Part shown: piece after piece, positions 3,623 to 40,499 of the stretch
Layout of the letters: every line of letters begins with the position of its first letter
Numbering within the stretch: the first letter of the stretch is position 1
Origin: Escherichia phage EC.W1-9
Direction: 5' to 3' (one strand)
Sequence record: PP445227.1
DNA length: 40,616 nt
Notes under the pieces: generated by a model
Databases searched by the model: none
Told to the model about the DNA's origin: nothing
What the model saw: only the letters and a program-made list of their open reading frames with translations
Translations under genes and position numbers: made by a program

Positions 3623-4387
3623 ATGAGCAAGATTGACTATCAGGCACTGCGTGCCAAGGCAGAAAAAGCAACGTGTGGTGTATGGTCGCTCGAATATGGA
3701 GAGAGCCGATTTGATGGTGATGATGCGCTAATTCATCGTGAAGTTGCTGGATATATTCCTATTTGCAGAATTGAAGGAGCGCATCCAGAAAGCGGTTTCG
3801 ATGAAGATTTCCAAATGGAACAGCAGGCCAATGCTGAATTCATCGCCGCAGCCAGTCCATCTACCGTGCTGGCACTGCTGGATGAACGGGAAAGAAACCA
3901 GCAATACATCAAACACCGTGACCAGGAGAACGAGGATATTGCGCTAACGGTAGGGAAGCTGCGTGTTGAGCTTGAGGAAGCAAAATCAAAACTCAACGAG
4001 CAACGCGAGTATTACGAAGGTGTTATCTCGGATGGAAGTAAGCGTATTGCTGAACTGGAGAAAAGCGAAGAGCAACTCATTAACGAGCGTGACCATGCTG
4101 AGTCTGCTTTAGCTGATATGTATTTTGCAGCAACCGGGGATAGGCCTGAGTGGAGTAACTGGTTCGGTTTTTCAGATGCAGTAGATGCCGTAGTTGACAG
4201 AATTGCTGATTTAGAAGCTAAACAGCCATCGCCAGTAGTACCTGAAGGACTGATTAAAGCGGTGCGTTTTTATGAGCAGGTAAAACGTGAGAACCCGCCA
4301 GTCGAAACCGGAGCATGGAAAGACGCTGTTGACTGGGTGCTCAAAGAGGCTTGCCAGGCTGTAAACATTGGCATCAAAGGAGAGTGA
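3623..4387 (+). CDS. Ead/Ea22-like protein
   Basis: 254 aa, acidic coiled-coil centre, sequence style of lambdoid Ead/Ea22 family proteins (recalled). Confidence 0.55.
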   Translation: MSKIDYQALRAKAEKATCGVWSLEYGESRFDGDDALIHREVAGYIPICRIEGAHPESGFDEDFQMEQQANAEFIAAASPSTVLALLDERERNQQYIKHRDQENEDIALTVGKLRVELEEAKSKLNEQREYYEGVISDGSKRIAELEKSEEQLINERDHAESALADMYFAATGDRPEWSNWFGFSDAVDAVVDRIADLEAKQPSPVVPEGLIKAVRFYEQVKRENPPVETGAWKDAVDWVLKEACQAVNIGIKGE

Positions 4388-4388
4388 T

Positions 4389-4904
4389 ATGGCGTTAACA
4401 CACCGCGAACTCTGTCAGATTGCGTACAAGTTCCTTAAGCGCAACGGGTTCAAGGTTTGTTTTCATGACCGCTTTATAGCTGTAACCAGTACCGGAGAAC
4501 AGCCAGATGCTATGGGATTCAGAAATTCAGCATCATGCCTGATAGAGGCGAAGTGTTCTCGTGCTGACTTGTTGGCAGATAGAAAAAAGCGTTTTCGTAA
4601 AAATCCGTCTCTTGGAATGGGCGACTGGCGATTCTTTATTAGTGAGCCAGGAATTATTTCAATTGAGGATTTACCACCTGGCTGGGGATTACTTCACGTT
4701 GTTAACGGAAGAGTACGGAAAGTACATGGGTGGCCCAAGGGTAATTGCTGTTGGGGTAATCCTGACGATAAGCCATTTACTGGAAATAAGCAGGTTGAAT
4801 GCGATTACATGTTATCTGCATTAAGGCGCATGGAGTTGAGAGGGCACCTTAATGAAATATATGACGGTGTAATTGTTAATAAGAAAGAAGGAAACGCAGC
4901 ATGA
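4389..4904 (+). CDS. Putative PD-(D/E)xK-type nuclease
   Basis: ATG at 4389 after AAGGAGAG; motif QPDAMGF…CLIEAK fits the D…E-x-K catalytic spacing. Confidence 0.45.
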   Translation: MALTHRELCQIAYKFLKRNGFKVCFHDRFIAVTSTGEQPDAMGFRNSASCLIEAKCSRADLLADRKKRFRKNPSLGMGDWRFFISEPGIISIEDLPPGWGLLHVVNGRVRKVHGWPKGNCCWGNPDDKPFTGNKQVECDYMLSALRRMELRGHLNEIYDGVIVNKKEGNAA

Positions 4905-5830
4905 TCACTATTACCAAAGAACGCCTGCTGACAATCCAGCAGTGGCGCGAAACATACGGACCTGGTAGCAACGTTGTACTGCCAGCAGAAGAAGCGGAAG
5001 AACTGGCACGAATTGCTCTGGCATCGCTGGAGCAGAATGCACTATCTGGCAACTCTCGGCTTATTCCTGGTGAAGTGTTGTCCGCAATCCGGGAGGTTGC
5101 CAAGATTCGTGCCGATTTCGATGATTTTGACGGTGACAGGCGAGGTATCGGTGATTGTCTGGATGAGGCCGAGCAAGAGCTTATCGTTACCATTAACAAA
5201 TATGCCAGTCAGTTGGCAGCAGAACCGATAGCGACTAATGACGTTCGAGAGCAGCAGACAGCCGTTCCGCCAGTTCCGGAAATACAGGATGATGTCGCGC
5301 AAGCAATTGAAAATCTCAAGCAGAAGTTAGTGGAATGCAATCGCTATAACTACTGCGCAGATGCAGTTAAAGGCGTAGAGGATGCCTGCCACGCTGCCAT
5401 GCTTCATAGTGCCGAACCTGCAAGTAATCATGAAGAGTTGCCGCTTGATTATCTCCAAGGTCAAAAAGATGGTCTTGAATGGGCTGCGCAGCTTGCAGAA
5501 GCAAATCACCCACAAACTGGCGACTGGCTTTACGATGACCCGCTGGAGGTGGCTAAAGCTATCAGAAAAGGTCCTGACATGCCCGAATTCGATGGACCAA
5601 CTCCGGCAACTCCGGATGGTTGGATAAGCTGTAGTGAGCGAATGCCGAACGATAAACAGTATGTTTGGTGTTGGGGTAAGTCTTACGGCTGGACTGAGTG
5701 CGATACCTTCGAAGGGTATTACGATTGGTCGAGAAACAAATGGTGGGCAGTTACTGACGATGGGGAAGAACCGGCATCGAAAGTAACCCACTGGATGCCG
5801 CTACCAGAACCGCCGCAGGAGGTGAAGTGA
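4901..5830 (+). CDS. DUF551-domain phage protein
   Basis: 309 aa; C-terminal DGWISCSERMP…THWMPLPEPP resembles the DUF551 signature (recalled). Confidence 0.55.
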   Translation: MITITKERLLTIQQWRETYGPGSNVVLPAEEAEELARIALASLEQNALSGNSRLIPGEVLSAIREVAKIRADFDDFDGDRRGIGDCLDEAEQELIVTINKYASQLAAEPIATNDVREQQTAVPPVPEIQDDVAQAIENLKQKLVECNRYNYCADAVKGVEDACHAAMLHSAEPASNHEELPLDYLQGQKDGLEWAAQLAEANHPQTGDWLYDDPLEVAKAIRKGPDMPEFDGPTPATPDGWISCSERMPNDKQYVWCWGKSYGWTECDTFEGYYDWSRNKWWAVTDDGEEPASKVTHWMPLPEPPQEVK

Positions 5831-6400: not shown

Positions 6401-6997
6401 ATGATGCCTGCTGAACCTAAAACCTATAAACGCAAATCAACGCAATTTAAGCCACTAACCGCAATGCAGGAGGCTTATTGCCAGTCATACATCAAAACGC
6501 CTGAAAACCAGACTCAGGCAGCGATTAACGCAGGATTCTCCCCAAATACAGCGGCAGTTAAAGCCAGTGTCATGATGCGCGATGAACGCATTCAAAAACG
6601 GATTGCCGAGTTGATGGAGGAGCGCAACAAACGAATGCGCGTCAGTGCCGATTACGTTCTCATGCGCCTGGTGGAGATCGACCAGATGGACGTGATTGAT
6701 ATCCTCAATGACGATGGGAGCCTTAAGCCAATCCGCGAGTGGCCGAAAATCTGGCGCACTACGCTTAGTGGCTTTGATCTGTCATCGACCATCATGAACA
6801 TGAACGAGGATTCGATAGAGACAATTCTCAAAAAAATTAAATGGCCTGACAAGGTGAAGAACCTCGAACTGATTGGTAAGCACGTCGACGTCAATGCATT
6901 CAAAGAACGCCTGGATGTTAATGTGAATGTGACAATTGCTGATCGCATAGCGGCAGCCAGGAAGCGACTCAAAGAACGTCAGGATGGTAATCAGTGA
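6401..6997 (+). CDS. Terminase small subunit
   Basis: AYCQSYIKTPENQTQAAINAGFSPNTAAVKAS region typical of phage small terminase; directly upstream of the large terminase. Start taken at the ATG at 6401 rather than the TTG at 6323. Confidence 0.7.
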   Translation: MMPAEPKTYKRKSTQFKPLTAMQEAYCQSYIKTPENQTQAAINAGFSPNTAAVKASVMMRDERIQKRIAELMEERNKRMRVSADYVLMRLVEIDQMDVIDILNDDGSLKPIREWPKIWRTTLSGFDLSSTIMNMNEDSIETILKKIKWPDKVKNLELIGKHVDVNAFKERLDVNVNVTIADRIAAARKRLKERQDGNQ

Positions 6998-8463
6998 CAG
7001 ATACAGCGTTATCTCCTGAAGAGCAGTTGATCGAGGATATTGCAGGGTTCACTCACGATCCGCTTGGCTATGCCCTCTATGCGTTCCCGTGGGGGGAAGA
7101 GGGGACTGAACTGGCACATGCTACCGGCCCACGTCAGTGGCAGGCTGATGCGTTCCGAGAGATACGTGATCACCTGCAGAATCCAGAGACGCGCTATCAG
7201 CCGCTTATGCTGGCACGCGCTTCTGGTCACGGTATTGGTAAATCCGCATTCATCTCAATGCTGATCAACTGGGGCATGTCCACTTGCGAGGATTGTAAGG
7301 TCGTGGTGACCGCCAACACCGACAACCAGCTACGAACGAAGACCTGGCCGGAAATTATCAAGTGGTCGAACCTTGCTATCACGAAAGACTGGTTTACCTG
7401 TACCGCTACTGCGATGTACAGCAATGATCCTGGGCACGACAAGCGGTGGCGAGCTGACGCAATCCCCTGGTCTGAGCACAACACTGAGGCATTCGCCGGA
7501 CTACACAACGAGCGCAAACGCATCATCGTGGTATTCGATGAAGCGTCGAACATTGCGGATCTGGTGTGGGAAGTTGCTGAGGGTGCGCTTACGGACGAAG
7601 ACACTGAGATTATCTGGGTGGCGTTCGGAAACCCTACACGTAATACCGGGCGTTTTCGCGAATGTTTCCGCAAATACAAACACCGCTGGAAAACTGCGCA
7701 GATTGACAGCCGGACGGTGGAAGGTACTAACAAACAGCAGTTGCAGAAATGGGTTGATGACTACGGGGAAGACAGCGACTTCGTTAAAATCCGTGTGCGC
7801 GGCATATTCCCTGATGCATCTGAATTGCAGTTTATCCCTACCGGTCTTACTGATGAGGCAATGAAACGGGTGGTAACCGCTGCGCAGGTTGCACATGCTC
7901 CGGTGATAATCGGCGTTGACCCGGCATACTCCGGAGTTGATGACGCTGTGATATACCTGCGGCAGGGGCTGCACAGTAAGGTGCTGTGGACTGGCAACAA
8001 GACCACTGACGATCTGATAATGGCGAAGCGTATCGCTGACTTTGAAGACCAGTACCAGGCTGACGCAGTGTTCATCGACTTCGGTTACGGAACTGGTCTG
8101 AAGTCAATCGGTGACGGCTGGGGTCGTACATGGCAACTTGTTCCGTTCGGTGGCGCGTCTACTGACCCGCAGATGCTCAACAAGCGTGGGGAGATGTTCA
8201 ACTCATGCAAGACATGGCTGAGGCTGGGCGGGATGCTGGATGACCAGGAAACAGCAGACGACCTGTCGACGGCAGAGTACAAAGTTCGCGTGGACGGTAA
8301 AATCGTTATCGAACCGAAGGAAGATATCAAAGAGCGACTTGGGCGTTCGCCGGGTAAAGGTGATGCGCTGCTGCTAACGTTCGCCTTCCCGGTAGCCAAG
8401 AAAACTAATGACCCACGGCAGCAGCAGGGGAAAGCTATTACTGAGTACGATCCGTTTTCATAA
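6994..8463 (+). CDS. Terminase large subunit
   Basis: 489 aa; Walker A-like ARASGHGIGKSAF; acidic nuclease-type C-terminal half; GTG start overlaps the small-subunit stop. Confidence 0.8.
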   Translation: MTDTALSPEEQLIEDIAGFTHDPLGYALYAFPWGEEGTELAHATGPRQWQADAFREIRDHLQNPETRYQPLMLARASGHGIGKSAFISMLINWGMSTCEDCKVVVTANTDNQLRTKTWPEIIKWSNLAITKDWFTCTATAMYSNDPGHDKRWRADAIPWSEHNTEAFAGLHNERKRIIVVFDEASNIADLVWEVAEGALTDEDTEIIWVAFGNPTRNTGRFRECFRKYKHRWKTAQIDSRTVEGTNKQQLQKWVDDYGEDSDFVKIRVRGIFPDASELQFIPTGLTDEAMKRVVTAAQVAHAPVIIGVDPAYSGVDDAVIYLRQGLHSKVLWTGNKTTDDLIMAKRIADFEDQYQADAVFIDFGYGTGLKSIGDGWGRTWQLVPFGGASTDPQMLNKRGEMFNSCKTWLRLGGMLDDQETADDLSTAEYKVRVDGKIVIEPKEDIKERLGRSPGKGDALLLTFAFPVAKKTNDPRQQQGKAITEYDPFS

Positions 8464-8467
8464 AGTT

Positions 8468-9073
8468 TTAAGCAGCATTGTCTGTGTTGCGATTGTTCCT
8501 TGAGTTAAACTTATTTGCAATTCTGGTATTGGATTTTATTTTTTCTTCTGCAAGTTCTTTTTCAAGCGCCATTATTTTTTCAATAAGGGAATCTCTTTCC
8601 TGCAAAAAAGAATTCAAAGACTCTTGGTGCTTGATTAAATCATTTTTATAGAATTGAATCTCAGACTCAAACTCAACCTTAACTCTGTCGTATGTAATGT
8701 CCCTTTGTGCCTCAAGCTTACGCAATTCTATGGCGTTTTTAACATCCCTGAGGCTTTTGTTGTGTTTGAAGTTATCGATGTTCTGTAGTGGAATTTTTTG
8801 AAACATCACCACTATATTGTTAAACCATGGAACTATTACACACAGCGCGAATGCACATAAAGCTGGATATAAGAGTGAGTGGTACGCATCACTATGGGAA
8901 GATATATAATTTATTTTTTCTTCAATTCCTGACTTACTGAAGAATAAAAATAATAGTGGATTCCAGTTAAAAGAACACCACGAAAACACAAATGCCCCAA
9001 GTGCTGGGTTGCGGACTCTCTCTGACGCTGTGCTAATAGCCGATGATGCGATCTCTTTAAATTGCTCGAACAT
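8468..9073 (-). CDS. Accessory (moron) membrane protein with C-terminal coiled coil
   Basis: 201-aa ORF on the opposite strand to the late operon, visibly AT-rich; two hydrophobic helices then a Lys/Glu-rich heptad region; palindromic site 33 bp upstream. Confidence 0.6.
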   Translation of the reverse strand: MFEQFKEIASSAISTASERVRNPALGAFVFSWCSFNWNPLLFLFFSKSGIEEKINYISSHSDAYHSLLYPALCAFALCVIVPWFNNIVVMFQKIPLQNIDNFKHNKSLRDVKNAIELRKLEAQRDITYDRVKVEFESEIQFYKNDLIKHQESLNSFLQERDSLIEKIMALEKELAEEKIKSNTRIANKFNSRNNRNTDNAA

Positions 9074-9105
9074 GTCTAAACCAGATGTTAAATGTTTTTG
9101 TTATC

Positions 9106-9120
9106 TTACCTTCAAGGTAA
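9106..9120. promoter_or_regulatory. Palindromic site TTACC-N5-GGTAA
   Basis: TTACCttcaaGGTAA upstream of the minus-strand moron gene. Confidence 0.5.
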
Positions 9121-9323
9121 CGTTCAGTCACCAGGCAAAAAAATGCCCGGCGAACCGGGCGAACTGGAAGCAATGAGTTATGCCTTCCGTGGCTGTACTG
9201 GTTTACAGCATGAAGTCATCGCAATGGCGTCCTGCTGTAAAAAGGGCGGTGATAGTCCTTCAAGGGAAACAGTCACCGCCAATCCCCTGGAACTTCTGGC
9301 ATCACGGTCCTTAGGCGTGATTC

Positions 9324-9400
9324 TGGCGTGGCATGCAGGATTCGAACCTGCGACCAACCGCTTAGAAGGCGGTTGCTCTGTCCAACTGAGCTAATGCCAC
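9324..9400 (-). tRNA. tRNA-Arg (anticodon UCU)
   Basis: Reverse complement folds as a cloverleaf: acceptor GTGGCAT/ATGCCAC, D-arm GCTC…GAGC, anticodon stem ACCGC/GCGGT with loop CTTCTAA, T-arm GCAGG-TTCGAAT-CCTGC, discriminator G, encoded CCA; 77 nt. Confidence 0.85.
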
Positions 9401-9729
9401 AACGCTGAGAGCACTGGTTTGGCTCGATATCAGGTAGGGTGGAACAGCCCGCTAATATCCAATGCTCTCATCGTTGTACCCTCGTCTCTTCCGAGGCGTC
9501 ACACCGAATCGCCGGGATGGTGAATCCCCGTGCGCGGAATAAAACCGCTCGACTTGCACATTCCGGCTACCTGGTTCGTTTGCCCGAGCAAGGGAGGGTG
9601 CCCCTTAAACGTATCCAGACCGCTATCGTCGCATGTGCCATACGCCGTACTGCTCAAAATAAAAGCTCACTCCACCTGTTCAATTTAACGACAAGCCAGT
9701 CAGGTTAGTAACCGGAATGAACTCTTTGG

Positions 9730-9744
9730 TTACCTTAAAGGTAA
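9730..9744. promoter_or_regulatory. Palindromic site TTACC-N5-GGTAA
   Basis: TTACCttaaaGGTAAT upstream of the head-gene cluster. Confidence 0.5.
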
Positions 9745-9834
9745 TAATTCGTGCATTAAATGTCAACTGTCTACGATAAATAAATCATATGTGGTTAAAT
9801 TGGTAATAATTTAATTGCGTACGGAGTCATTGAT

Positions 9835-10041
9835 ATGTGCATGGGTAGCTCACCATCAGTGCCTGCAACACCAGAAGTTCAGGCAGCACCACAGGAGCAG
9901 GATGCCGCCGTTGTTGATGCCCGCGACGAAGAAACTCGTCGCCGTCGCGCTGCTGCTGGTCGTAGTTCTACGCTGCTTACCGGTTCTCAGGGCGACACAT
10001 CAACCGCTAATACCAGCGGTAAAACGCTGCTTGGTCAGTAA
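9835..10041 (+). CDS. Small hydrophilic protein
   Basis: 68-aa ORF, GGAG 7 nt upstream of the ATG; low-complexity, Arg/Ala-rich. Confidence 0.45.
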   Translation: MCMGSSPSVPATPEVQAAPQEQDAAVVDARDEETRRRRAAAGRSSTLLTGSQGDTSTANTSGKTLLGQ

Positions 10042-10055
10042 CCGGAGTCATTGAA

Positions 10056-11735
10056 ATGGCGGAAACAACTAAAGAGCGATTGAACAAACAGTTCGCACAA
10101 CTTGAAAGCGAGCGTCAATCGTTCGAGCCGCACTGGCGCGAGTTGAGTGATTACATCAACCCGCGTGGTTCCCGCTTTCTGACTTCTGAGGTCAACCGTA
10201 ACGATCGACGCAATACACGTATTATTGATTCGACCGGGACTATGGCGGCGCGCACTCTCGCCAGCGGCATGATGTCAGGCATCACAAGCCCCGCGCGTCC
10301 GTGGTTTCGCCTGGCTACGCCAGATCCTGAAATGATGGATTATGGCCCTGTTAAGTTGTGGCTTGAGGCGGTGCAGAACCGCATGAACGATATGTTCAAT
10401 AAGTCGAATCTCTATCAGTCTCTGCCGCAGTTATACGGAAGCCTCGGCACATACAGCACTGGTGCAATGGCAGTGCTGGAGGATGACGAGGACATCATTC
10501 GCACAATGCCATTCCCGATAGGCAGTTACTACCTGGCTAACTCACCTCGTGGCAGTGTGGACACCTGTTTTCGCAAGTTCTCTATGACTGTTCGTCAGCT
10601 TGTTCAGGAGTTCGGGCTAAATAACGTCAGCGAATCCGTAAAAAGCATGTGGGAAAGCGGCACCTACGAGAAGTGGATTGAAGTGATGCATTCGGTTTAC
10701 CCGAACATTGACCGCGATGCATCGAAGCTGGATAGCAAGAACAAGCCATTCAAATCGGTTTATTACGAGGTTGGTGGCGATAACGACAAGTTGTTGCGCG
10801 AGTCCGGATTCGATGAGTTTCCAATTATGGCTCCGCGCTGGGAAGTTAACGGCGAAGATGTTTATGGATCATCATGCCCGGGTATGCTGGCGCTTGGACC
10901 TGTTAAGGCATTGCAGCTTCTCCAGAAGCGCAAGTCGCAGTTGATTGATAAAGCCACCAATCCGCCGATGGTTGCTCCGACTTCCCTCAAGAATCAGCGC
11001 GCCTCCCTTCTTCCTGGCGACATCACGTATATCGATCAGATTACTGGTCAGGATGGCTTCAGGCCTGCTTATCTGGTTAACCCCAGTACAGCAGATTTGG
11101 TGGCAGACATTCAGGACACTCGTCAAATCATTAACAGCGCCTACTTCGTCGATCTGTTCATGATGTTGCAGAACATCAATACCCGCTCAATGCCTGTTGA
11201 AGCGGTGATCGAAATGAAAGAAGAAAAGCTTCTGATGTTGGGGCCGGTTCTGGAGCGTCTGAACGACGAATGTCTTAATCCTCTCATTGACCGCGCTTTC
11301 TCGATGATGGTGCGTAAAAACATGCTGCCGCCACCGCCTGACGCGATGGAAGGTATGCCCCTGAAGGTCGAATACATTTCTGTCATGGCTCAGGCGCAGA
11401 AGTCTATCGGCCTGTCCAGTCTGGCGTCCACGGTTAACTTCATTGGTCAACTTGCGCAAGCGAAACCAGAAGCTTTCGACAAACTCAACGTTGATCAGGC
11501 GATCGATGCATTCGCTGATATGTCCGGAGTGTCTCCAACCGTCATTGTTCCGCAGGAACAGGTTGAGCAGGCTCGCCAGCAACGGGCACAGCAACAACAG
11601 CAGCAACAAATGATGGCGATGGGGATGGCGGCGGCACAGGGTGCCAAGACGCTAAGCGAAGCTAAAACTTCGGATCCGAGTGTTTTGTCAGCTATGGCGA
11701 ATGCAGTTAGTGGTCAGGGTGGGCAATCACAATGA
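10056..11735 (+). CDS. Portal (head-to-tail connector), T7 gp8-like
   Basis: 559 aa, follows the terminase; Gln/Met/Ala-rich C-terminal tail (QQQQQQQMMAMGMAAAQGA) parallels the T7 gp8 C-terminus. Confidence 0.75.
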   Translation: MAETTKERLNKQFAQLESERQSFEPHWRELSDYINPRGSRFLTSEVNRNDRRNTRIIDSTGTMAARTLASGMMSGITSPARPWFRLATPDPEMMDYGPVKLWLEAVQNRMNDMFNKSNLYQSLPQLYGSLGTYSTGAMAVLEDDEDIIRTMPFPIGSYYLANSPRGSVDTCFRKFSMTVRQLVQEFGLNNVSESVKSMWESGTYEKWIEVMHSVYPNIDRDASKLDSKNKPFKSVYYEVGGDNDKLLRESGFDEFPIMAPRWEVNGEDVYGSSCPGMLALGPVKALQLLQKRKSQLIDKATNPPMVAPTSLKNQRASLLPGDITYIDQITGQDGFRPAYLVNPSTADLVADIQDTRQIINSAYFVDLFMMLQNINTRSMPVEAVIEMKEEKLLMLGPVLERLNDECLNPLIDRAFSMMVRKNMLPPPPDAMEGMPLKVEYISVMAQAQKSIGLSSLASTVNFIGQLAQAKPEAFDKLNVDQAIDAFADMSGVSPTVIVPQEQVEQARQQRAQQQQQQQMMAMGMAAAQGAKTLSEAKTSDPSVLSAMANAVSGQGGQSQ

Positions 11736-26830: not shown

Positions 26831-26845
26831 TTACCAATCGGGTAA
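26831..26845. promoter_or_regulatory. Palindromic site TTACC-N5-GGTAA
   Basis: TTACCaatcgGGTAAT about 22 bp upstream of the 26809 start. Confidence 0.5.
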
Positions 26846-26930
26846 TTTTAAACATGAGTATAATGCTTTTAACTGCAACGAGTGTAAACAATTATTGATA
26901 ATTGTAGGCACATCCCTGTGCCGCCGCCCG

Positions 26931-27623
26931 TCAGAAGAACCCTGCTTTGTCGTTGATGTACTCCGCGTGCGTCTGGATATCACGCAGGCATTTGCTCACA
27001 CCGACGATGTAGCAGAACATGGTGGTCAACTCCGCCGCCGCGCCCGATACGTCGTGCCCGTCTTCCTGTAACTGGTTTAGCAGATTCATCAGCAGTGAGT
27101 TCTCCGTCAGGCCGAGAACACCAGACGGCGAATGAATCAGGCTGCGGTAGCCGGGCTTCAGTGGGGCGCTGTAGGTTTTGTTCTCTACCTTCATTGCCTG
27201 CATCACTGCTGATGCTGTGGCGTTGGCTACCTGGTCGGCAACCATCTTTATGCGTTCTTCCTGCGGGAGCGAGTTTTTAATGTAACTTCCGGTGCGGCGG
27301 ATCTGAGGAAGAACCTCACCTGTAACCCATTCAAGAAATCTGAATGCTCTCGTTCCCTCAGTCATTGCCTCTTTGCAACGCAGAATAAGGATGTAGAGAC
27401 CTGATTCTGAAACGATGGATAGTTCTTGTATTCCACCAGGGGTCTGTATTGAATACAGCCCCTTTTTGTTCCAGCCTTTTTTATCAAGTTTTCTCGCTTG
27501 TGTAACATCAATATTCAAAGCATTGCACACATCTTTGGTGACAAACCAAGGTTCTCCGTCAATCATGAACATACGGATCTGGCAGGATGACTCAAAGGAA
27601 AAGATGGAAGGTTTGGTATTCAT
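26931..27623 (-). CDS. Antirepressor (Bro-N / KilA-N-type N-terminal domain)
   Basis: N-terminus FSFESSCQIRMFMIDGEPWFVTKDVCNALNI…GLYSIQTPGGIQELSIVSESGLYILI matches the Bro-N antirepressor fold pattern; ATG at 27623 after AAAGGTGA. Confidence 0.7.
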   Translation of the reverse strand: MNTKPSIFSFESSCQIRMFMIDGEPWFVTKDVCNALNIDVTQARKLDKKGWNKKGLYSIQTPGGIQELSIVSESGLYILILRCKEAMTEGTRAFRFLEWVTGEVLPQIRRTGSYIKNSLPQEERIKMVADQVANATASAVMQAMKVENKTYSAPLKPGYRSLIHSPSGVLGLTENSLLMNLLNQLQEDGHDVSGAAAELTTMFCYIVGVSKCLRDIQTHAEYINDKAGFF

Positions 27624-27889
27624 AGCGATCACCTTTGTAGTTAGGTTAATCACCACCGCTGAGACCAATCAGATGGTGGTGAACTGTGCAGAGTTGGTCT
27701 TACCGGCTACAAAGGAACCCGGCGCACCTTTCGGTGCCCCCACACAGCCCACCATAGAATAGGTGCGCTTTACACATAAAAAAACCGCTTATGCGGCATA
27801 TGTGCCTCTGTAGTAATCCGGGAGACCAATCCCGGCACTGGATTTTGCCAGTGCCCGATTACTATGGCACAAGAGGAGTGCAATGTAAA

Positions 27890-27904
27890 TTTACCGAAAA
27901 GGTA
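27890..27904. promoter_or_regulatory. Palindromic site TTACC-N5-GGTAA
   Basis: TTACCgaaaaGGTAAT; TATATGGTTTGAT follows about 35 bp downstream. Confidence 0.5.
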
Positions 27905-28066
27905 ATAATAAATGCATAACTCACGTTATTTCAACCCTATATGGTTTGATTTATCCCATTTCAGAAAATACCTGCCTATTTTTTTGCCAGTATGCGTATA
28001 CTTTCGATAGAATGTTTACCCTAGAGGTAGTTGGGGGTGCCCGTGAACACGAAGAGAGCTACAGTA

Positions 28067-28486
28067 ATGCAGCATTTGAGGAAATCAGAAAAAAATAAAG
28101 ACCATGAAATATTGAGTAAGGCCATTGTTCGGGCTTCCAATAATACTGTTATACCTCATGCTGAAGAGTCTGGACAGAAATTTCTTATTCGGTATTTCAC
28201 TGAAAATAGTGCAGTTGAGGAGATTTTAAAACATCAGGGAGGGGAATTTAAATGTGGAAAACTGGCAGATTATGTTCGTCGTGAAACGTCTGAACAAGAA
28301 GTATATTATGCTGATATTAATCATAAGTCAGGTGTGAAAATTGTAATAGGCTATTACACAACTCCCAAAAATGTTATGCATGAGGTCCCAAAGATGTCCG
28401 TCGAGAAATCTCATGCAATCTCGCGCAGGATGTTTGCACGCACTGCCGAAGATATGGCTCAGGAGCTCTACGACGATGCTGAATAA
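28067..28486 (+). CDS. Hypothetical protein, first gene of a two-gene accessory cassette
   Basis: ATG at 28067 after GAAGAGAG; 139 aa; overlaps the next gene by 11 nt. Confidence 0.5.
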   Translation: MQHLRKSEKNKDHEILSKAIVRASNNTVIPHAEESGQKFLIRYFTENSAVEEILKHQGGEFKCGKLADYVRRETSEQEVYYADINHKSGVKIVIGYYTTPKNVMHEVPKMSVEKSHAISRRMFARTAEDMAQELYDDAE

Positions 28487-28982
28487 ATTCCAGGGGTTGG
28501 TTCACCCTGGAATTTTTGGGAAGGACCCTGAGCTAATACCTATCAAAAACGCGTTCATAGATCACTGGCGCTACGGTCATCATAAGGATTTCGGAAAGGA
28601 CACTCTGTTTCGGGATCCACCGAAAGAAATGCTGGAATATCACATACGCCACGTTCACGTAAACATCGGAAACTATACTGACAAGTTTGGTGAGAGCGGT
28701 ACGGAACAATGCTGGAAAAACTGGGCGTCTGGGAAGAAAGACAAGACCACTAACAAGCATAAAAAGATCCCAACCAGTGACGTGTATGTGATTTATCTGG
28801 TCACATCTGAACGCCATGCCTTCCTTCTGGATTATTGGGATGAACCAGCACATAAGACAGTAGAAATTGACGAGCAGAAGCAAAAATTAGTTGTCGAGTG
28901 TGACAGAATTTTGCGGCTGAAAAAGTTAGAATCCATGCCGCGCGATGCTAGTTTGTGGGACCCAGAATTTTACGACTGTTAA
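28476..28982 (+). CDS. Hypothetical protein, possible toxin-like component (weak YafO-like motifs)
   Basis: 168 aa; motifs HVHVN and AFLLDYWDEPAHK resemble YafO-family toxin blocks as recalled from memory; followed by a terminator. Confidence 0.4.
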   Translation: MLNKFQGLVHPGIFGKDPELIPIKNAFIDHWRYGHHKDFGKDTLFRDPPKEMLEYHIRHVHVNIGNYTDKFGESGTEQCWKNWASGKKDKTTNKHKKIPTSDVYVIYLVTSERHAFLLDYWDEPAHKTVEIDEQKQKLVVECDRILRLKKLESMPRDASLWDPEFYDC

Positions 28983-28983
28983 T

Positions 28984-29008
28984 GGCCGCTTTCGCGGCCT
29001 TTTCTTTA
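28984..29008 (+). terminator. Rho-independent terminator (GGCCGC-tttc-GCGGCC + TTTTCTTTA)
   Basis: Same 16-nt hairpin as at 25731. Confidence 0.6.
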
Positions 29009-29263
29009 TGTGGTTTGTTTTCGTAATTGTTCGGCACAATAGTCGAGATGTGTTTGCAGATCCTGCATAGACATCTGTGAGCTGGTGACGTAGTTAATCA
29101 GTGCAGTCAGTTCGGCAAGTGGGCCATCGACATTAAATCCATCCTTATCGAGATCCCGGAGTAATTTCATCAAGTGCGATCCCTCCACCAGTGACCTGAC
29201 GCCTCCCGGCGTGTGAATCCTTTCGGTAAATCCGTCTTCCAGTGGATAGTGATACTGCTGCAT
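29006..29263 (-). CDS. Small protein paralogous to the antirepressor C-terminal domain
   Basis: ERIHTPGGVRSLVEGSHLMKLLRDLDKDGFNVDGPLAELTALINYV aligns by eye with the C-terminus of the 26931-27623 protein; ATG at 29263 after GGAGAAG. Confidence 0.5.
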   Translation of the reverse strand: MQQYHYPLEDGFTERIHTPGGVRSLVEGSHLMKLLRDLDKDGFNVDGPLAELTALINYVTSSQMSMQDLQTHLDYCAEQLRKQTT

Positions 29264-29339
29264 CTTATCTTCTCCATGCAATAACTGTATGTTTATACAG
29301 TAACAAATAATTTGTTTGCTATCCAGCACGTTTTGCAAA

Positions 29340-29354
29340 TTACCCGAAAGGTAA
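29340..29354. promoter_or_regulatory. Palindromic site ATTACC-N5-GGTAAT (perfect)
   Basis: In the divergent intergenic region between the 29263 gene and the tailspike. Confidence 0.55.
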
Positions 29355-34300: not shown

Positions 34301-35551
34301 GTGCTTACCGATACAAAATTAAAAAACCTCAAGCCGCAGGACAAACTGTACAAGGTCTCCGATCGTGACGGGCTGTATGTAGCTGTGCTTACGTCAGGCA
34401 CGGTCTCATTTCGTTATGACTACCGTATCAACGGTCGCCGCGAAACACTGGTAATCGGGCAGTATGGGCGTGACGGTATCAGCCTGGCAGAAGCGCGGGA
34501 AGAACTGATTGCTGCAAAGAAGCTGCTTAAAGCAGGCCAGTCACCGGCTGCGGCTAAACGTGACGGTATCAAAAAGATTCGTGGTGCCGAAACGTTTGCG
34601 GTACATACCGACAGTTATATGAAACACGTCATCCTGGCTGAAAGTACCCGCGCAATGAAGCAGGCAGTGATCGACCGTGACATACTTCCGGTTCTTGGCA
34701 ACAAAATGATGGCTGAAATTACCACATCGATGGTTCGTGATTTGTGTGACCGGATTGTCGAACGCGGTGGCCGGGCAACAGCAGTGCAGGCCAGGGAGAT
34801 CATCAGCAGCGTATACCGTCACGCCAATGACCGTGGTCATGGTTTGTTTAATCCTGCGGCTGACATTAAGCCTTCGTCTATCGCCATATTTAAACCACGA
34901 GAGCGAACACTGACACCAGAAGAAATTGGCCTGTTCTTCCGCACGTTGGATGCCATTGGTGCTATGGGCACTATGAAAATGGCTTTAAAACTGGTGCTTA
35001 TCACTATGGTTCGTAAGGGCGAATTCACCAATGCAACGTGGGATGAAATAGATTTTAAAAAATGGACATGGACAATTCCTTCAGACCGCATGAAGGGAAG
35101 CCGGGCGCATGTTATTTACCTGCCTAAACAGGCTCAGGATATATTGGTCGGGTTGCAGATGTGCGCTGGTGGAAGTGAATATCTGGTTCCTGGTCGTTAC
35201 AATTTCCGGAAGCCATTATCTAATGCCGCGCTGAACTCTCTGATCGACAGAACGGTGAAAATAATAAATGAAGATGGTGAGCATATTCAGGATTTCACCG
35301 TACACGATATGCGCCGTACAGCCAGTACGTTGTTGCATGAGGCTGGTTATCCTTCAGACTGGATTGAAAAGGCTCTGGCACATGAGCAGAAAGGTGTGCG
35401 CGCCGTATATAACAAAGCGGAATACGCCAGACAGCGCGCCTACATGTTGCAGCAGTGGGCCGATATGATAGATTCCTGGATTAACGGGGAGCATACGGAT
35501 CTGATTCCGTTCTCCCCGTCGAAGTTTGAGAAGTGGATGGCGAGGGAATAA
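34301..35551 (+). CDS. int: Tyrosine integrase
   Basis: N-terminus (M)LTDTKLKNLKP…DGLYVAV typical of the DUF4102-type integrase arm domain; C-terminal catalytic region with HDMRRT and AHEQ…VRAVYNKAEY (Tyr) signatures. Confidence 0.85.
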   Translation: MLTDTKLKNLKPQDKLYKVSDRDGLYVAVLTSGTVSFRYDYRINGRRETLVIGQYGRDGISLAEAREELIAAKKLLKAGQSPAAAKRDGIKKIRGAETFAVHTDSYMKHVILAESTRAMKQAVIDRDILPVLGNKMMAEITTSMVRDLCDRIVERGGRATAVQAREIISSVYRHANDRGHGLFNPAADIKPSSIAIFKPRERTLTPEEIGLFFRTLDAIGAMGTMKMALKLVLITMVRKGEFTNATWDEIDFKKWTWTIPSDRMKGSRAHVIYLPKQAQDILVGLQMCAGGSEYLVPGRYNFRKPLSNAALNSLIDRTVKIINEDGEHIQDFTVHDMRRTASTLLHEAGYPSDWIEKALAHEQKGVRAVYNKAEYARQRAYMLQQWADMIDSWINGEHTDLIPFSPSKFEKWMARE

Positions 35552-39325: not shown

Positions 39326-39340
39326 TTACCGTTGAGGTAA
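39326..39340. promoter_or_regulatory. Palindromic site TTACC-N5-GGTAA
   Basis: TTACCgttgaGGTAAT 20 bp upstream of the leftward operon's first gene; an extra TTACC half-site at 39313. Confidence 0.5.
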
Positions 39341-39387
39341 TAATTATGCGTATATGGTTTGATGTCAATAGATATGAGTTAAAAAAA

Positions 39388-39402
39388 TTACCCGTTAGGT
39401 AA
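39388..39402. promoter_or_regulatory. Palindromic site ATTACC-N5-GGTAAT (perfect)
   Basis: Second site in the same control region. Confidence 0.5.
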
Positions 39403-39414
39403 TCGAATAGGCAA

Positions 39415-39438
39415 TAAAAAAGCCGCCATAAGGCGGCT
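39415..39438 (-). terminator. Rho-independent terminator after the repressor-like gene
   Basis: On the minus strand GCCGCC-ttat-GGCGGC followed by TTTTTT. Confidence 0.65.
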
Positions 39439-39459
39439 TACTTACTGAAAAATATGGTT

Positions 39460-40044
39460 TTATTGTTTGTTTTTTTCGTTCTGGTTGATGACAAATTCAA
39501 TGTAACTTTCGATCTTTGCTTTCTCGGTTTCGGGTAACAATGCGTAGCGCGAGCGATCATAGTTGATGGTCGCAGGGTCGTGCGGGTGAATCAGTAATTC
39601 ATAGCCGTGACGCCCGAATGCGGATGCAACATTCTCCAGGGTGGAAATGGAAACGCTGACCTCATTGTTTAACAGGCGGCTGATTGTCACCTGGGCTACG
39701 CCGGATGCGCGGTGAAGTTTTCCCTGTGTTGAAAGGTCGCGGCTTTCGCTCATCCAGCGTTCCAGGTTGTGAGCCGCCAGCTGGCCAATGTCGCTTGGGC
39801 CGACAGGCTGAAAACCTTCCTGAGAAAGCGAGCGATCGATATCAAGCCAGTTACGGGGTTTATTGGCGGCAGCTTCAATTTTTCGCGCAACCTGATCGCC
39901 GATAACCTTCTTACCAAGAGCCCAGCGGTTTACCAGATTTGCCTGAGTTCCAAGTTTTTCAGCCATCCGCGTCTGAACACCATTGAATTCACGGTCGATC
40001 AAGTCGTTGAGATTTTGCCTGCGGACGTCCTGGATACTTTTCAT
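39460..40044 (-). CDS. Repressor-like DNA-binding protein with two HTH-like segments
   Basis: 194 aa; segments LGTQANLVNRWALGKKVIGDQVARKIE and SGVAQVTISRLLNNEVSVSISTLENVASAFG look like XRE-type HTH units; divergent from a Cro-like gene across a triple-site region; no S24 peptidase motif noticed. Confidence 0.5.
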   Translation of the reverse strand: MKSIQDVRRQNLNDLIDREFNGVQTRMAEKLGTQANLVNRWALGKKVIGDQVARKIEAAANKPRNWLDIDRSLSQEGFQPVGPSDIGQLAAHNLERWMSESRDLSTQGKLHRASGVAQVTISRLLNNEVSVSISTLENVASAFGRHGYELLIHPHDPATINYDRSRYALLPETEKAKIESYIEFVINQNEKNKQ

Positions 40045-40098
40045 TTTCTGGAAAATCGCCTCATATATGAATCAGTAGATGATTCAATTTAAAGCAAT

Positions 40099-40113
40099 AT
40101 TACCCAACAGGTA
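40099..40113. promoter_or_regulatory. Operator-like site 1 of the divergent control region (ATTACCcaacaGGTAAA)
   Basis: TTACC-N5-GGTAA between the repressor-like and Cro-like genes. Confidence 0.55.
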
Positions 40114-40115
40114 AA

Positions 40116-40130
40116 TGCACCTCATGGGTA
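40116..40130. promoter_or_regulatory. Operator-like site 2 (GCACCtcatgGGTAA, imperfect)
   Basis: Centre 17 bp from site 1. Confidence 0.35.
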
Positions 40131-40146
40131 ACTATCCTTGATTTTT

Positions 40147-40161
40147 GTTACCTTATGGGTG
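40147..40161. promoter_or_regulatory. Operator-like site 3 (TTACCttatgGGTGA, imperfect)
   Basis: Centre 31 bp from site 2; triplet arrangement. Confidence 0.45.
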
Positions 40162-40198
40162 AATATTTATTATCTGAAATAAATATCAGGCAATAGCT

Positions 40199-40429
40199 AT
40201 GAGCGATAACGGACATTTCGATTTCAAAAAGCACTGGCTTGCACTTACTCCGGATGAGCGTGAAGCCTTCGCACAGGAAGCCGGAACGACGAGTCACTAT
40301 ATCCAGACTCACTTAACAGGTAAGCGCAAAATGCCAGGTAAAGTATTGATGAATGGGCTTTTTAAAGCCTGTAAAACAAGACAATGGCTGCGCTCAAAAG
40401 CAGAACTGGCATACTTCTTCTACTCATGA
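40199..40429 (+). CDS. Cro-like small DNA-binding protein
   Basis: 76 aa, transcribed divergently from the repressor-like gene, followed by a terminator; possible HTH in FAQEAGTTSHYIQTHLTGKR. Confidence 0.45.
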   Translation: MSDNGHFDFKKHWLALTPDEREAFAQEAGTTSHYIQTHLTGKRKMPGKVLMNGLFKACKTRQWLRSKAELAYFFYS

Positions 40430-40461
40430 TATCCAGCTACAACCCTCTGTAGACCGCCACC

Positions 40462-40483
40462 CGGCGGTCTTTTCATATCTATT
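40462..40483 (+). terminator. Rho-independent terminator downstream of the Cro-like gene
   Basis: GACCGCC-accc-GGCGGTC followed by TTTT. Confidence 0.6.
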
Positions 40484-40484
40484 C

Positions 40485-40499
40485 GTACCTCAAAGGTAA
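40485..40499. promoter_or_regulatory. Palindromic site gTACC-N5-GGTAAT (imperfect)
   Basis: Directly after the terminator; AACCAAATATGGTT follows. Confidence 0.4.

Follow-up and report, generated by a model that had tools for sequence, protein, structure and literature searches.

What does the DNA beside a phage tRNA gene hold when no gene is annotated in it? The question is raised by Escherichia phage EC.W1-9 (sequence record PP445227.1), whose 40,616-nucleotide sequence, here called the window and numbered from its first letter, carries a tRNA-Arg(UCU) gene on the minus strand and, next to it, a 430-bp segment at 9401–9834. The PGAP annotation gives no feature between the tRNA and a 68-aa gene at 9835. 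An earlier reading of the letters without database searches (the sequence-only reading) had proposed that the segment contains either the tRNA promoter or a structured RNA. Both were found: a promoter-like site is predicted, and the segment encodes a structured RNA, about 175 nt long and conserved, whose fold is backed by covariation and which is referred to as the module.

The structure of the module was derived by hand on the minus strand and checked on 24 sequences and later on 62 distinct ones. It consists of the following parts.

9476–9654, minus strand (the tRNA strand): structured RNA module, about 175 nt, scoring 150.4 bits with covariance model R1.
9647–9643/9631–9627, minus strand: helix P1, with an invariant 11-nt loop, UAUGGCACAUG.
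9622–9620/9566–9564, minus strand: helix P2a.
9618–9615/9574–9571, minus strand: helix P2b, enclosing a variable insert.
Within the module after the invariant stretch described below, minus strand: helix P3, variable.
9528–9524/9518–9514, minus strand: helix P4, a GGGAT/ATCCC hairpin.
9496–9492/9484–9480, minus strand: helix P5, with the loop GAAGAGA.
9638–9633/9561–9556, minus strand: candidate pseudoknot PK1, GCACAU/AUGUGC.
9522–9519/9505–9502, minus strand: candidate pseudoknot PK2, CACC/GGUG.

Between the P2 helices and P3 the module carries an invariant 19-nt stretch, GGUAGCCGGAAUGUGCAAG. As a control for the pairing, partners were slid out of register and the canonical pairs recounted. 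Across the 62 distinct sequences 96.2% of the pair cells were canonical, compared with 26–40% when slid, and 141 cells showed a double change, compared with 2–21 in the slid controls. Compensatory changes occurred in 11 of the 32 pairs. The GGGAT/ATCCC stem-loop singled out by the sequence-only reading is real (9514–9518/9524–9528) and is the covarying helix P4. PK2 shows one covariation, from C-G to A-U in the lambdoid clade; PK1 is invariant in all sequences, so that covariation cannot test it. The single-sequence fold of 9401–9660 was no better than that of shuffled sequences (z = −0.81), indicating that thermodynamics alone would miss the module, which was found by covariation.

The strand of the module is fixed by three observations. 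There are 33 G·U cells on the module strand against 14 on the opposite strand, all 46 tRNAs that lie near a copy of the module are co-oriented with it, and the operons around it run in its direction. A search with R1 with filters off gave no second copy anywhere in the window.

Base composition divides the segment. The description of the segment as GC-richer applies to 9401–9660 (G+C 0.55–0.57) but not to 9660–9834, which has only about 0.40; moreover, 9401–9660 resembles the neighbouring coding DNA in G+C, and exceeds only 9660–9834 and a nearby accessory gene. This split indicates that 9401–9834 has two parts, one holding the structured RNA and the other, AT-rich, holding the promoter and operator. 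The further claim that 9401–9834 lacks a convincing open reading frame (ORF) was borne out, as no frame is conserved and the spacings between conserved blocks take all three residues modulo 3. A small protein on either strand was rejected on the same ground, the inter-block spacings being spread over the three values modulo 3 (13/12/7 for one interval, 8/16/8 for another), and the coding reading fails also because the invariant 18-mer falls in three different frames in chance ORFs of various loci.

The module was then compared with known RNAs. The Rfam 15 scan, which had been suggested as a check, recovered the tRNA and gave no match over 9401–9834, whether at the gathering thresholds or at E ≤ 10; the module copy of a lambdoid phage gave no match either. 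An Rfam match to Plastid-ycf2 was the antisense of the tRNA, and weak matches to RyhB, sau-6072 and anti-hemB at 9137–9213 reflect only a terminator at that site. The small RNAs (sRNAs) Pas, AgvB and AsxR were discarded as candidates, being located elsewhere in prophages. The RfaH ops element (GGCGGTAGnnTG) was also rejected: only GGTAGC is common to ops and the invariant stretch, and the ops flanks are absent from the module, where CCA or GCG rather than GGC precedes GGTAGC and CGG rather than nTG follows it. C3 and T11 are essential positions of ops, and both are missing from the module. No boxA of a lambda-type nut site was found inside the module. Homology to the put sites of phage HK022 was rejected, since local alignments scored 20–26 against a shuffle mean of 22.6 ± 4.3 (putL against putR scores 52), and R1 gave no match at E ≤ 1 in the HK022 loci. 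The module is not annotated in any record examined; literature searches on prophage sRNAs, antiterminator RNAs and lambdoid phages without N turned up no description of it, and full-text searches with its invariant 14–16-mers brought up nothing but C. elegans papers on other subjects. To the extent that these tools can show, the module is a family not described before, although its general kind, the phage early-operon regulatory or structured RNAs, is known.

How widely is the module distributed? The first search key was an invariant 18-mer and the second was the loop of helix P1, which recovered the same 18-mer. This is a caveat of ascertainment, and it accounts for the lack of variation in PK1. 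Scanning IMG/VR with one invariant 18-mer gave more than 120 loci, most of which have only window 9461–9648 in common (about 79% identity), with unrelated flanks. The module is present in 1839 of 5426 complete E. coli genomes (about 34%), with 554 places on plasmids. It occurs in P1, P7, D6, SJ46 and RCS47, in Klebsiella, Enterobacter and Salmonella phages, and in Stx2a and Stx2c phages, mEp460 and other lambdoids, where it lies between a cI-like repressor gene and the early-left genes. When one genome per species was scanned with the helix P1 loop as key, the module was confined to the Enterobacterales, bar one 1.7-kb contig binned as Bacillota; a pattern match in Gemmatimonadaceae was discarded, having no full module and scoring 11 bits.

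This distribution bears on the relation of the module to the tRNA. The window genome is of the phiV10/epsilon15-like type (Uetakevirus), and in all tRNA-bearing members of this group a predicted promoter and the module lie upstream of the tRNA on the same strand, as would suit a segment that is only the promoter or 5′ leader of the tRNA and aids its transcription, folding or RNase P processing. The module, however, is far more widespread than the tRNA. No tRNA lies near it at 84 of 130 loci; a tRNA-Arg(UCU) is found 72–129 nt downstream at 28, a tRNA(CAU) 15 nt upstream at 16 and a tRNA-Ile 444 nt downstream at two. In P1 the module is downstream of a tRNA, and Klebsiella phage ST11-OXA245phi3.2 retains the module in the absence of the tRNA. 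A role confined to the tRNA is thus largely refuted already by the distribution, and we give it little probability. Because most loci have no nearby tRNA, the module is an independent element and not merely a tRNA leader. It is flanked by at least 19 different sequences upstream and about five main ones downstream, and is exchanged among temperate enterobacterial phages as an independent unit.

The intergenic region between terL and the portal gene, aligned across seven relatives, is also a mosaic. Both epsilon15 and a Klebsiella phage have no tRNA and keep the flanking non-coding blocks. In epsilon15 (locus L004, 2167–2297, aligned with window 9250–9620) the tRNA and most of the module are missing. 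The junction coincides with a short direct repeat, GCATCAAGGGAA, of which SPN9TCW has two copies, and this suggests that the loss may have occurred by recombination between the direct repeats. Such a deletion, together with sharp boundaries and mosaic junctions between unrelated flanks, is what might be seen if conservation acted on the DNA, as a recombination linker at the module boundaries or a protein-binding site. We nevertheless regard conservation at the DNA level as very improbable, given that the compensatory changes in five helices keep pairing rather than sequence, that G·U pairs favour one strand, and that the orientation always follows the operon and the tRNAs.

In the window, the module lies within what appears to be a minus-strand transcription unit. 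Its features, in the predicted direction of transcription, are as follows.

9738–9773, minus strand: predicted sigma-70 promoter (TTGACA 9766–9761, 17 nt, TACCTT 9743–9738), from a consensus scan and direct reading.
9730–9744, strandless: operator-type palindrome O1, TTACCTTAAAGGTAA, overlapping the −10/start region of the predicted promoter.
9655–9729, minus strand: untranslated leader, running from the predicted start to the module, of lineage-specific sequence.
9399–9477, minus strand: long hairpin P6, with arms 9477–9459 and 9417–9399, ending at the tRNA 5′ end.
9324–9400, minus strand: tRNA-Arg(UCU) with encoded CCA, from ARAGORN and Rfam.
9239–9280, minus strand: terminator-like hairpin T1 (GGCGGUGA, 20-nt loop, UCACCGCC, CUUUUU; −17.7 kcal/mol).
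9202–9241, minus strand: conserved hairpin between T1 and T2 (fold of 9130–9323, z = −2.54).
9137–9160, minus strand: intrinsic terminator T2 (GCCCGG-UUCG-CCGGGC followed by U7).
9106–9120, strandless: operator-type palindrome O2, TTACCTTCAAGGTAA, between T2 and the accessory gene.
8468–9073, minus strand: variable accessory (moron) gene of 201 aa, phrog_4780, function unknown, G+C 0.31–0.40.

The scan also offered an alternative promoter at 9773–9744 (TAGACA, 18 nt, AATTAT). The −35 site, a perfect TTGACA (TGTCAA on the plus strand), is kept in the E. coli and Salmonella relatives and is GGTCAA in Klebsiella. In the window 18 sites match the palindrome TTACCT-N3-AGGTAA with at most two mismatches, against 0.85 expected, at 1815, 1877, 9106, 9730, 26831–29354, 34244 and 39326–40499. 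These sites are scattered genome-wide and cluster around a helix-turn-helix repressor-like gene (39463–40044), resembling the dispersed C1 operators of P1, and the epsilon15 record labels the site homologous to O1 as a repressor binding site. In the leader, which here is of the phiV10 type, 12 nt at 9708–9719 could pair with GUAGCCGGAAUG, an invariant string of the module at 9559–9570, to which they are complementary. This complement is not present in the Salmonella or Klebsiella relatives, and it could reflect an alternative pairing or chance.

Downstream of the module, the 19-nt arms of P6 are 89% complementary, and its loop varies in sequence and length between relatives. The arms carry compensatory changes in Klebsiella phage ST11-OXA245phi3.2 (CAACGAGTAGCTCAC/GTGAGCTACCCGTTG). 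P6 also follows the module in lambdoid phages and is absent in P1-like phages. The P6 loops of a lambdoid phage (locus L129, 2890–3010, minus strand) and of SPN9TCW (locus L003, 2880–2995, minus strand) contain tRNA T-arm-like strings, GGTTCAATTCC and GTTCGATTC. A degenerate second tRNA in the lambdoid loop was rejected, as there were T-arm-like strings only and no match to the tRNA model at E ≤ 10; the strings may be decayed tRNA genes at the place where phiV10-like phages carry tRNA-Arg.

Beyond the 3′ end of the tRNA the order is a hairpin, the terminator-like T1, another hairpin and the strong terminator T2. T1 was found in our own scan, the built-in terminator scan being limited to loops of at most 8 nt; its stem is kept among relatives, in some of which G-C replaces A-U. 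The T2 stem covaries in relatives (GCCCAC/GUGGGC, GCCCGC/GCGGGC), and the equivalent site is annotated as a rho-independent terminator in the epsilon15 record. The promoter scan found no promoter-like site between T2 and the ATG of the accessory gene. The 201-aa accessory protein has no Pfam match. In BUCT711 its slot likewise holds phrog_4780, whereas phiV10 has a member of the N4 gp49/Sf6 gp66 family there, SPN9TCW a protease/lipoprotein-like phrog, and Klebsiella phage ST512-KPC3phi13.3 a Tad2-like gene (PF11195); the slot after T2 is an accessory-gene hot spot.

Where does the module lie in other phages? In P1 it is on the strand of the C1-controlled ban operon, between trnI and ban and 15 nt after tRNA-Ile. 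In lambdoids a cI-like repressor gene, of at least eight types in all, lies 100–250 nt upstream of it, and beyond cI comes a divergent cro-like gene; this position is the PL/nutL/N slot of lambda. No N gene is annotated in the two annotated lambdoid carriers examined. In one Stx phage, Stx2a_WGPS2, a Q-like gene is present and no N is annotated between int and Q. The cI terminator and OL-like half-sites, shared with the cI-cro region, precede the module, and an untranslated leader of about 780 nt precedes the first early-left gene. A terminator downstream of the module in this phage (locus L129, 2690–2740, minus strand) ends in CGCUCUUUUUACAA, which is boxA-like by the rrn/nut consensus. One lambdoid locus from IMG/VR (L024) has two tandem modules on the early-left strand, at 3996–4159 (150 bits) and 4803–4964 (113 bits), both minus. 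An opposite-strand gene comes after each, of the SieB family after the first and for a membrane protein after the second, with the early-left genes beyond; the second copy differs at positions that are invariant elsewhere.

Intrinsic terminators are found 150–660 nt 3′ of the module in about half of the distinct contexts, two of them in the window, and they precede the first gene wherever the first gene was located. Terminators beyond a 5′ leader with highly conserved junction and loop nucleotides and pseudoknots are features that would suit a riboswitch-like leader, tuning early transcription to a host metabolite or signalling nucleotide. The distance of these terminators, however, and their lack of overlap with the fold leave no evident expression platform. 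The position in P1 is mid-operon, and no Rfam 15 aptamer resembles the module. A riboswitch is therefore, in our judgement, improbable.

The mechanism that we favour, while placing it somewhat short of an even chance, is that the module is a cis-acting processive antiterminator, working by analogy like HK022 put and not homologous to it. The proposal is drawn from the position of the module, the lack of an annotated N in the lambdoids checked, the downstream terminators and the conservation pattern. In the window, a repressor bound at the operator 9730–9744 would control the predicted promoter (approximately 9766–9738) of a non-coding early unit on the minus strand, which would run through the leader, the module, P6, the tRNA, T1 and T2 to the accessory gene. 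The module would fold on the nascent transcript and bind the RNA polymerase that made it, and the elongation complex so modified would resist both intrinsic and Rho-dependent termination. The polymerase could then cross T1 and T2 and reach the variable accessory gene (9073–8468). In N-less lambdoids it would cross the long untranslated leader and the terminator of the early-left operon.

Antitermination is supported by the occurrence of the module after predicted repressor-controlled early promoters in three unrelated phage groups. A need for it is suggested by the lack of an annotated N, the long leader, the downstream terminators and the absence of a promoter-like site after T2, and the tandem copies of L024, each placed before an opposite-strand gene, are counted as support for this need. 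The invariant unpaired stretches and the restriction to Enterobacterales fit binding to a conserved host machine. An unidentified put-like RNA has been proposed for a related N-less lambdoid with the same yfbR/yfdQ/yfdP-type early-left genes (PMC12315714, 2025). In its widest form, which we advance more hesitantly still, the proposal is that the module may be a new class of polymerase-modifying RNA that replaces N in many lambdoids, including the Stx2a and Stx2c phages, and that epsilon15-like podophages and P1-like phage-plasmids have borrowed, so that their early transcription can pass tRNA genes, terminators and accessory cassettes.

Several points weigh against antitermination. Every promoter invoked is a prediction, and the activity itself is inferred. 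The module and put have no sequence or architecture in common, and R1 finds nothing in HK022. Each phage has a single copy, which is on the PL side; with filters off, no copy was found after PR, either in the 24 kb from int to lysis of Stx2a_WGPS2 or in the window. The P1 module is 2.3 kb from Pban, with no terminator found between the module and ban, and about half of the contexts are without a predicted downstream terminator. As epsilon15 is viable without most of the module and the tRNA, the function of the module is dispensable. Finally, the abutment to tRNAs, at 15 nt in P1 and through P6 to the tRNA 5′ end in the window, would just as well yield a trans-acting RNA by processing.

Such an RNA is the main rival explanation. 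The module would then be a stable trans-acting non-coding RNA cut from the early transcript by tRNA-processing enzymes, by RNase P at the tRNA 5′ end here and by 3′-trailer processing after tRNA-Ile in P1, and it would bind or sequester a host factor, perhaps serving as a sponge or as a decoy against host defence. Stable RNAs C and D of T4 are the classic parallel. Co-oriented tRNAs at fixed distances at 46 of 130 loci are consistent with this, as are the exact coincidence of the P6 end with the tRNA 5′ end and the T-arm-like remnants in the P6 loop of lambdoids and SPN9TCW. The compact fold, with two candidate pseudoknots and invariant loops, the accessory or anti-defence cargo of the adjoining slot, such as the Tad2-like gene, and the viability of epsilon15 without the module point the same way. 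On the other hand, there is no tRNA at 84 of the 130 loci, a trans-acting RNA would not require strict placement in the nutL/N slot of lambdoid early-left operons, and the P1 module has neither a terminator of its own nor an obvious 3′-end signal. Taking both sides together, we consider a trans-acting RNA unlikely, though a serious competitor to cis-acting antitermination.

The tRNA-Arg(UCU) itself is an already known cargo gene of phiV10-like phages. It was the single tRNA called by ARAGORN in the 40.6-kb window (anticodon tct at position 35), and it scored 73.3 bits with RF00005 (gathering threshold 29; E = 2.5e-14). Its anticodon loop is the 7-nt CUUCUAA with anticodon UCU, and the plus-strand letters at 9324–9326 are tgg, so that CCA is encoded at 9326–9324 on the minus strand; the gene is thus complete, as the sequence-only reading had it. 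Its neighbours are terL (6994–8463) on one side and the portal gene (10056–11735) on the other, and the integrase gene (Arm-DNA-bind_3 and Phage_integrase, 34301–35548) is about 25 kb away. The tRNA is the same letter for letter in the phiV10 virion genome. This identity and the distance to the integrase indicate that it is cargo and not an att remnant, in agreement with what had been proposed. Some 23 complete E. coli chromosomes match window 8400–10100 at 100% identity, phage phiV10 matches window 9137–10100 at 96%, and the Salmonella and Klebsiella relatives share 72–73 of the 77 tRNA bases.

This tRNA-Arg is annotated in O157 typing phages 9 and 10, SPN9TCW, phiv142-3 and ZX5, and its annotation in phiV10-like phages is also found in the literature (PMC9782041). 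It is not annotated in the phiV10 RefSeq record, NC_007804, in which a hypothetical protein, PhiV10p04, overlaps it on the opposite strand (locus coordinates 2672–2923). Like the window ORF 9092–9394, PhiV10p04 is probably a spurious ORF.

Codon usage was compared, as had been suggested, between phage and host. AGA makes up 9.06 per 1000 codons in 39 window ORFs (a crude set), and the E. coli average is about 2–3 per 1000. The genes rich in AGA are early and accessory genes and those for internal or injection-type proteins and the tailspike, while terL, portal and capsid have 0–1 AGA. The expectation that the tRNA might aid translation of late or accessory genes is therefore sustained for the accessory genes but not for these late ones. 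Most simply, to judge from codon counts, the tRNA supplements AGA decoding in a phage that uses AGA several times more than its host. In being complete and reading a host-rare, phage-frequent codon it is like other phage tRNAs (tRNA-Arg(UCU) of T4, ileZ-argN-argO of Stx phages, trnI/trnT/trnA of P1). It is identical to Stx-phage argN at 53 of 77 bases, to argO at 58, and presumably to E. coli argU at 64, given the argU sequence that we assume. Read with that assumption for argU, these identities indicate a separate phage tRNA lineage.

Two further observations concern the rest of the window. At 27672–27854 on the minus strand, Rfam places a C4 antisense RNA (78.6 bits) beside an isrK Hfq-binding RNA (74.7 bits), just upstream of a Bro-N antirepressor-like ORF (26934–27668, minus strand); the locus resembles an immI region of the P1/P7 type, carried here by a podophage. 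The window begins in early genes, has its integrase in the middle (34301–35548) and ends near the repressor, and from this gene order the 40.6 kb reads as a circularly permuted phage genome rather than a prophage with host flanks.

A phage tRNA alone would be routine; the RNA that adjoins it is not, being backed by covariation and carried by P1, by Stx phages and by some 34% of the complete genomes of E. coli. Should the module act in trans as a stable RNA, it would rank as a very common early RNA of phages. As an antiterminator, on the other hand, it would account for early-left gene expression in N-less lambdoids, a matter left open by the 2025 genome study. It would also be a second, structurally unrelated RNA that reprogrammes RNA polymerase, and would bear on the induction of Stx prophages.

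Among known RNAs, two groups invite comparison. The tRNA cluster of T4 includes stable RNAs C and D, of unknown function, and GOLLD and ROOL are large structured RNAs found beside prophage tRNA genes. Like these, the module is structured, non-coding and co-oriented beside phage tRNA genes. Unlike GOLLD and ROOL, it is much smaller and mostly not tRNA-adjacent, and Rfam 15, which holds both, gives no match. The second group is put, the cis-acting antiterminator RNAs putL and putR of the N-less lambdoid HK022, whose properties are taken from PMC9378689; these RNAs suppress termination by binding the zinc-binding domain of the RNA polymerase beta′ subunit. The module differs from put in having about 175 nt, five helices and two candidate pseudoknots, where put has about 70 nt and two stem-loops; in being single-copy, where put occurs once after PL and once after PR; and in occurring also in P1-like and epsilon15-like phages, with an antitermination activity that is putative. 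Like put, it is non-coding and structured and would be transcribed very early from a promoter under repressor control, predicted in the present case, as one of the first sequences of the transcript. Like put, too, it is found in lambdoids with no annotated N, has terminators beyond it, and has an enterobacterial host range.

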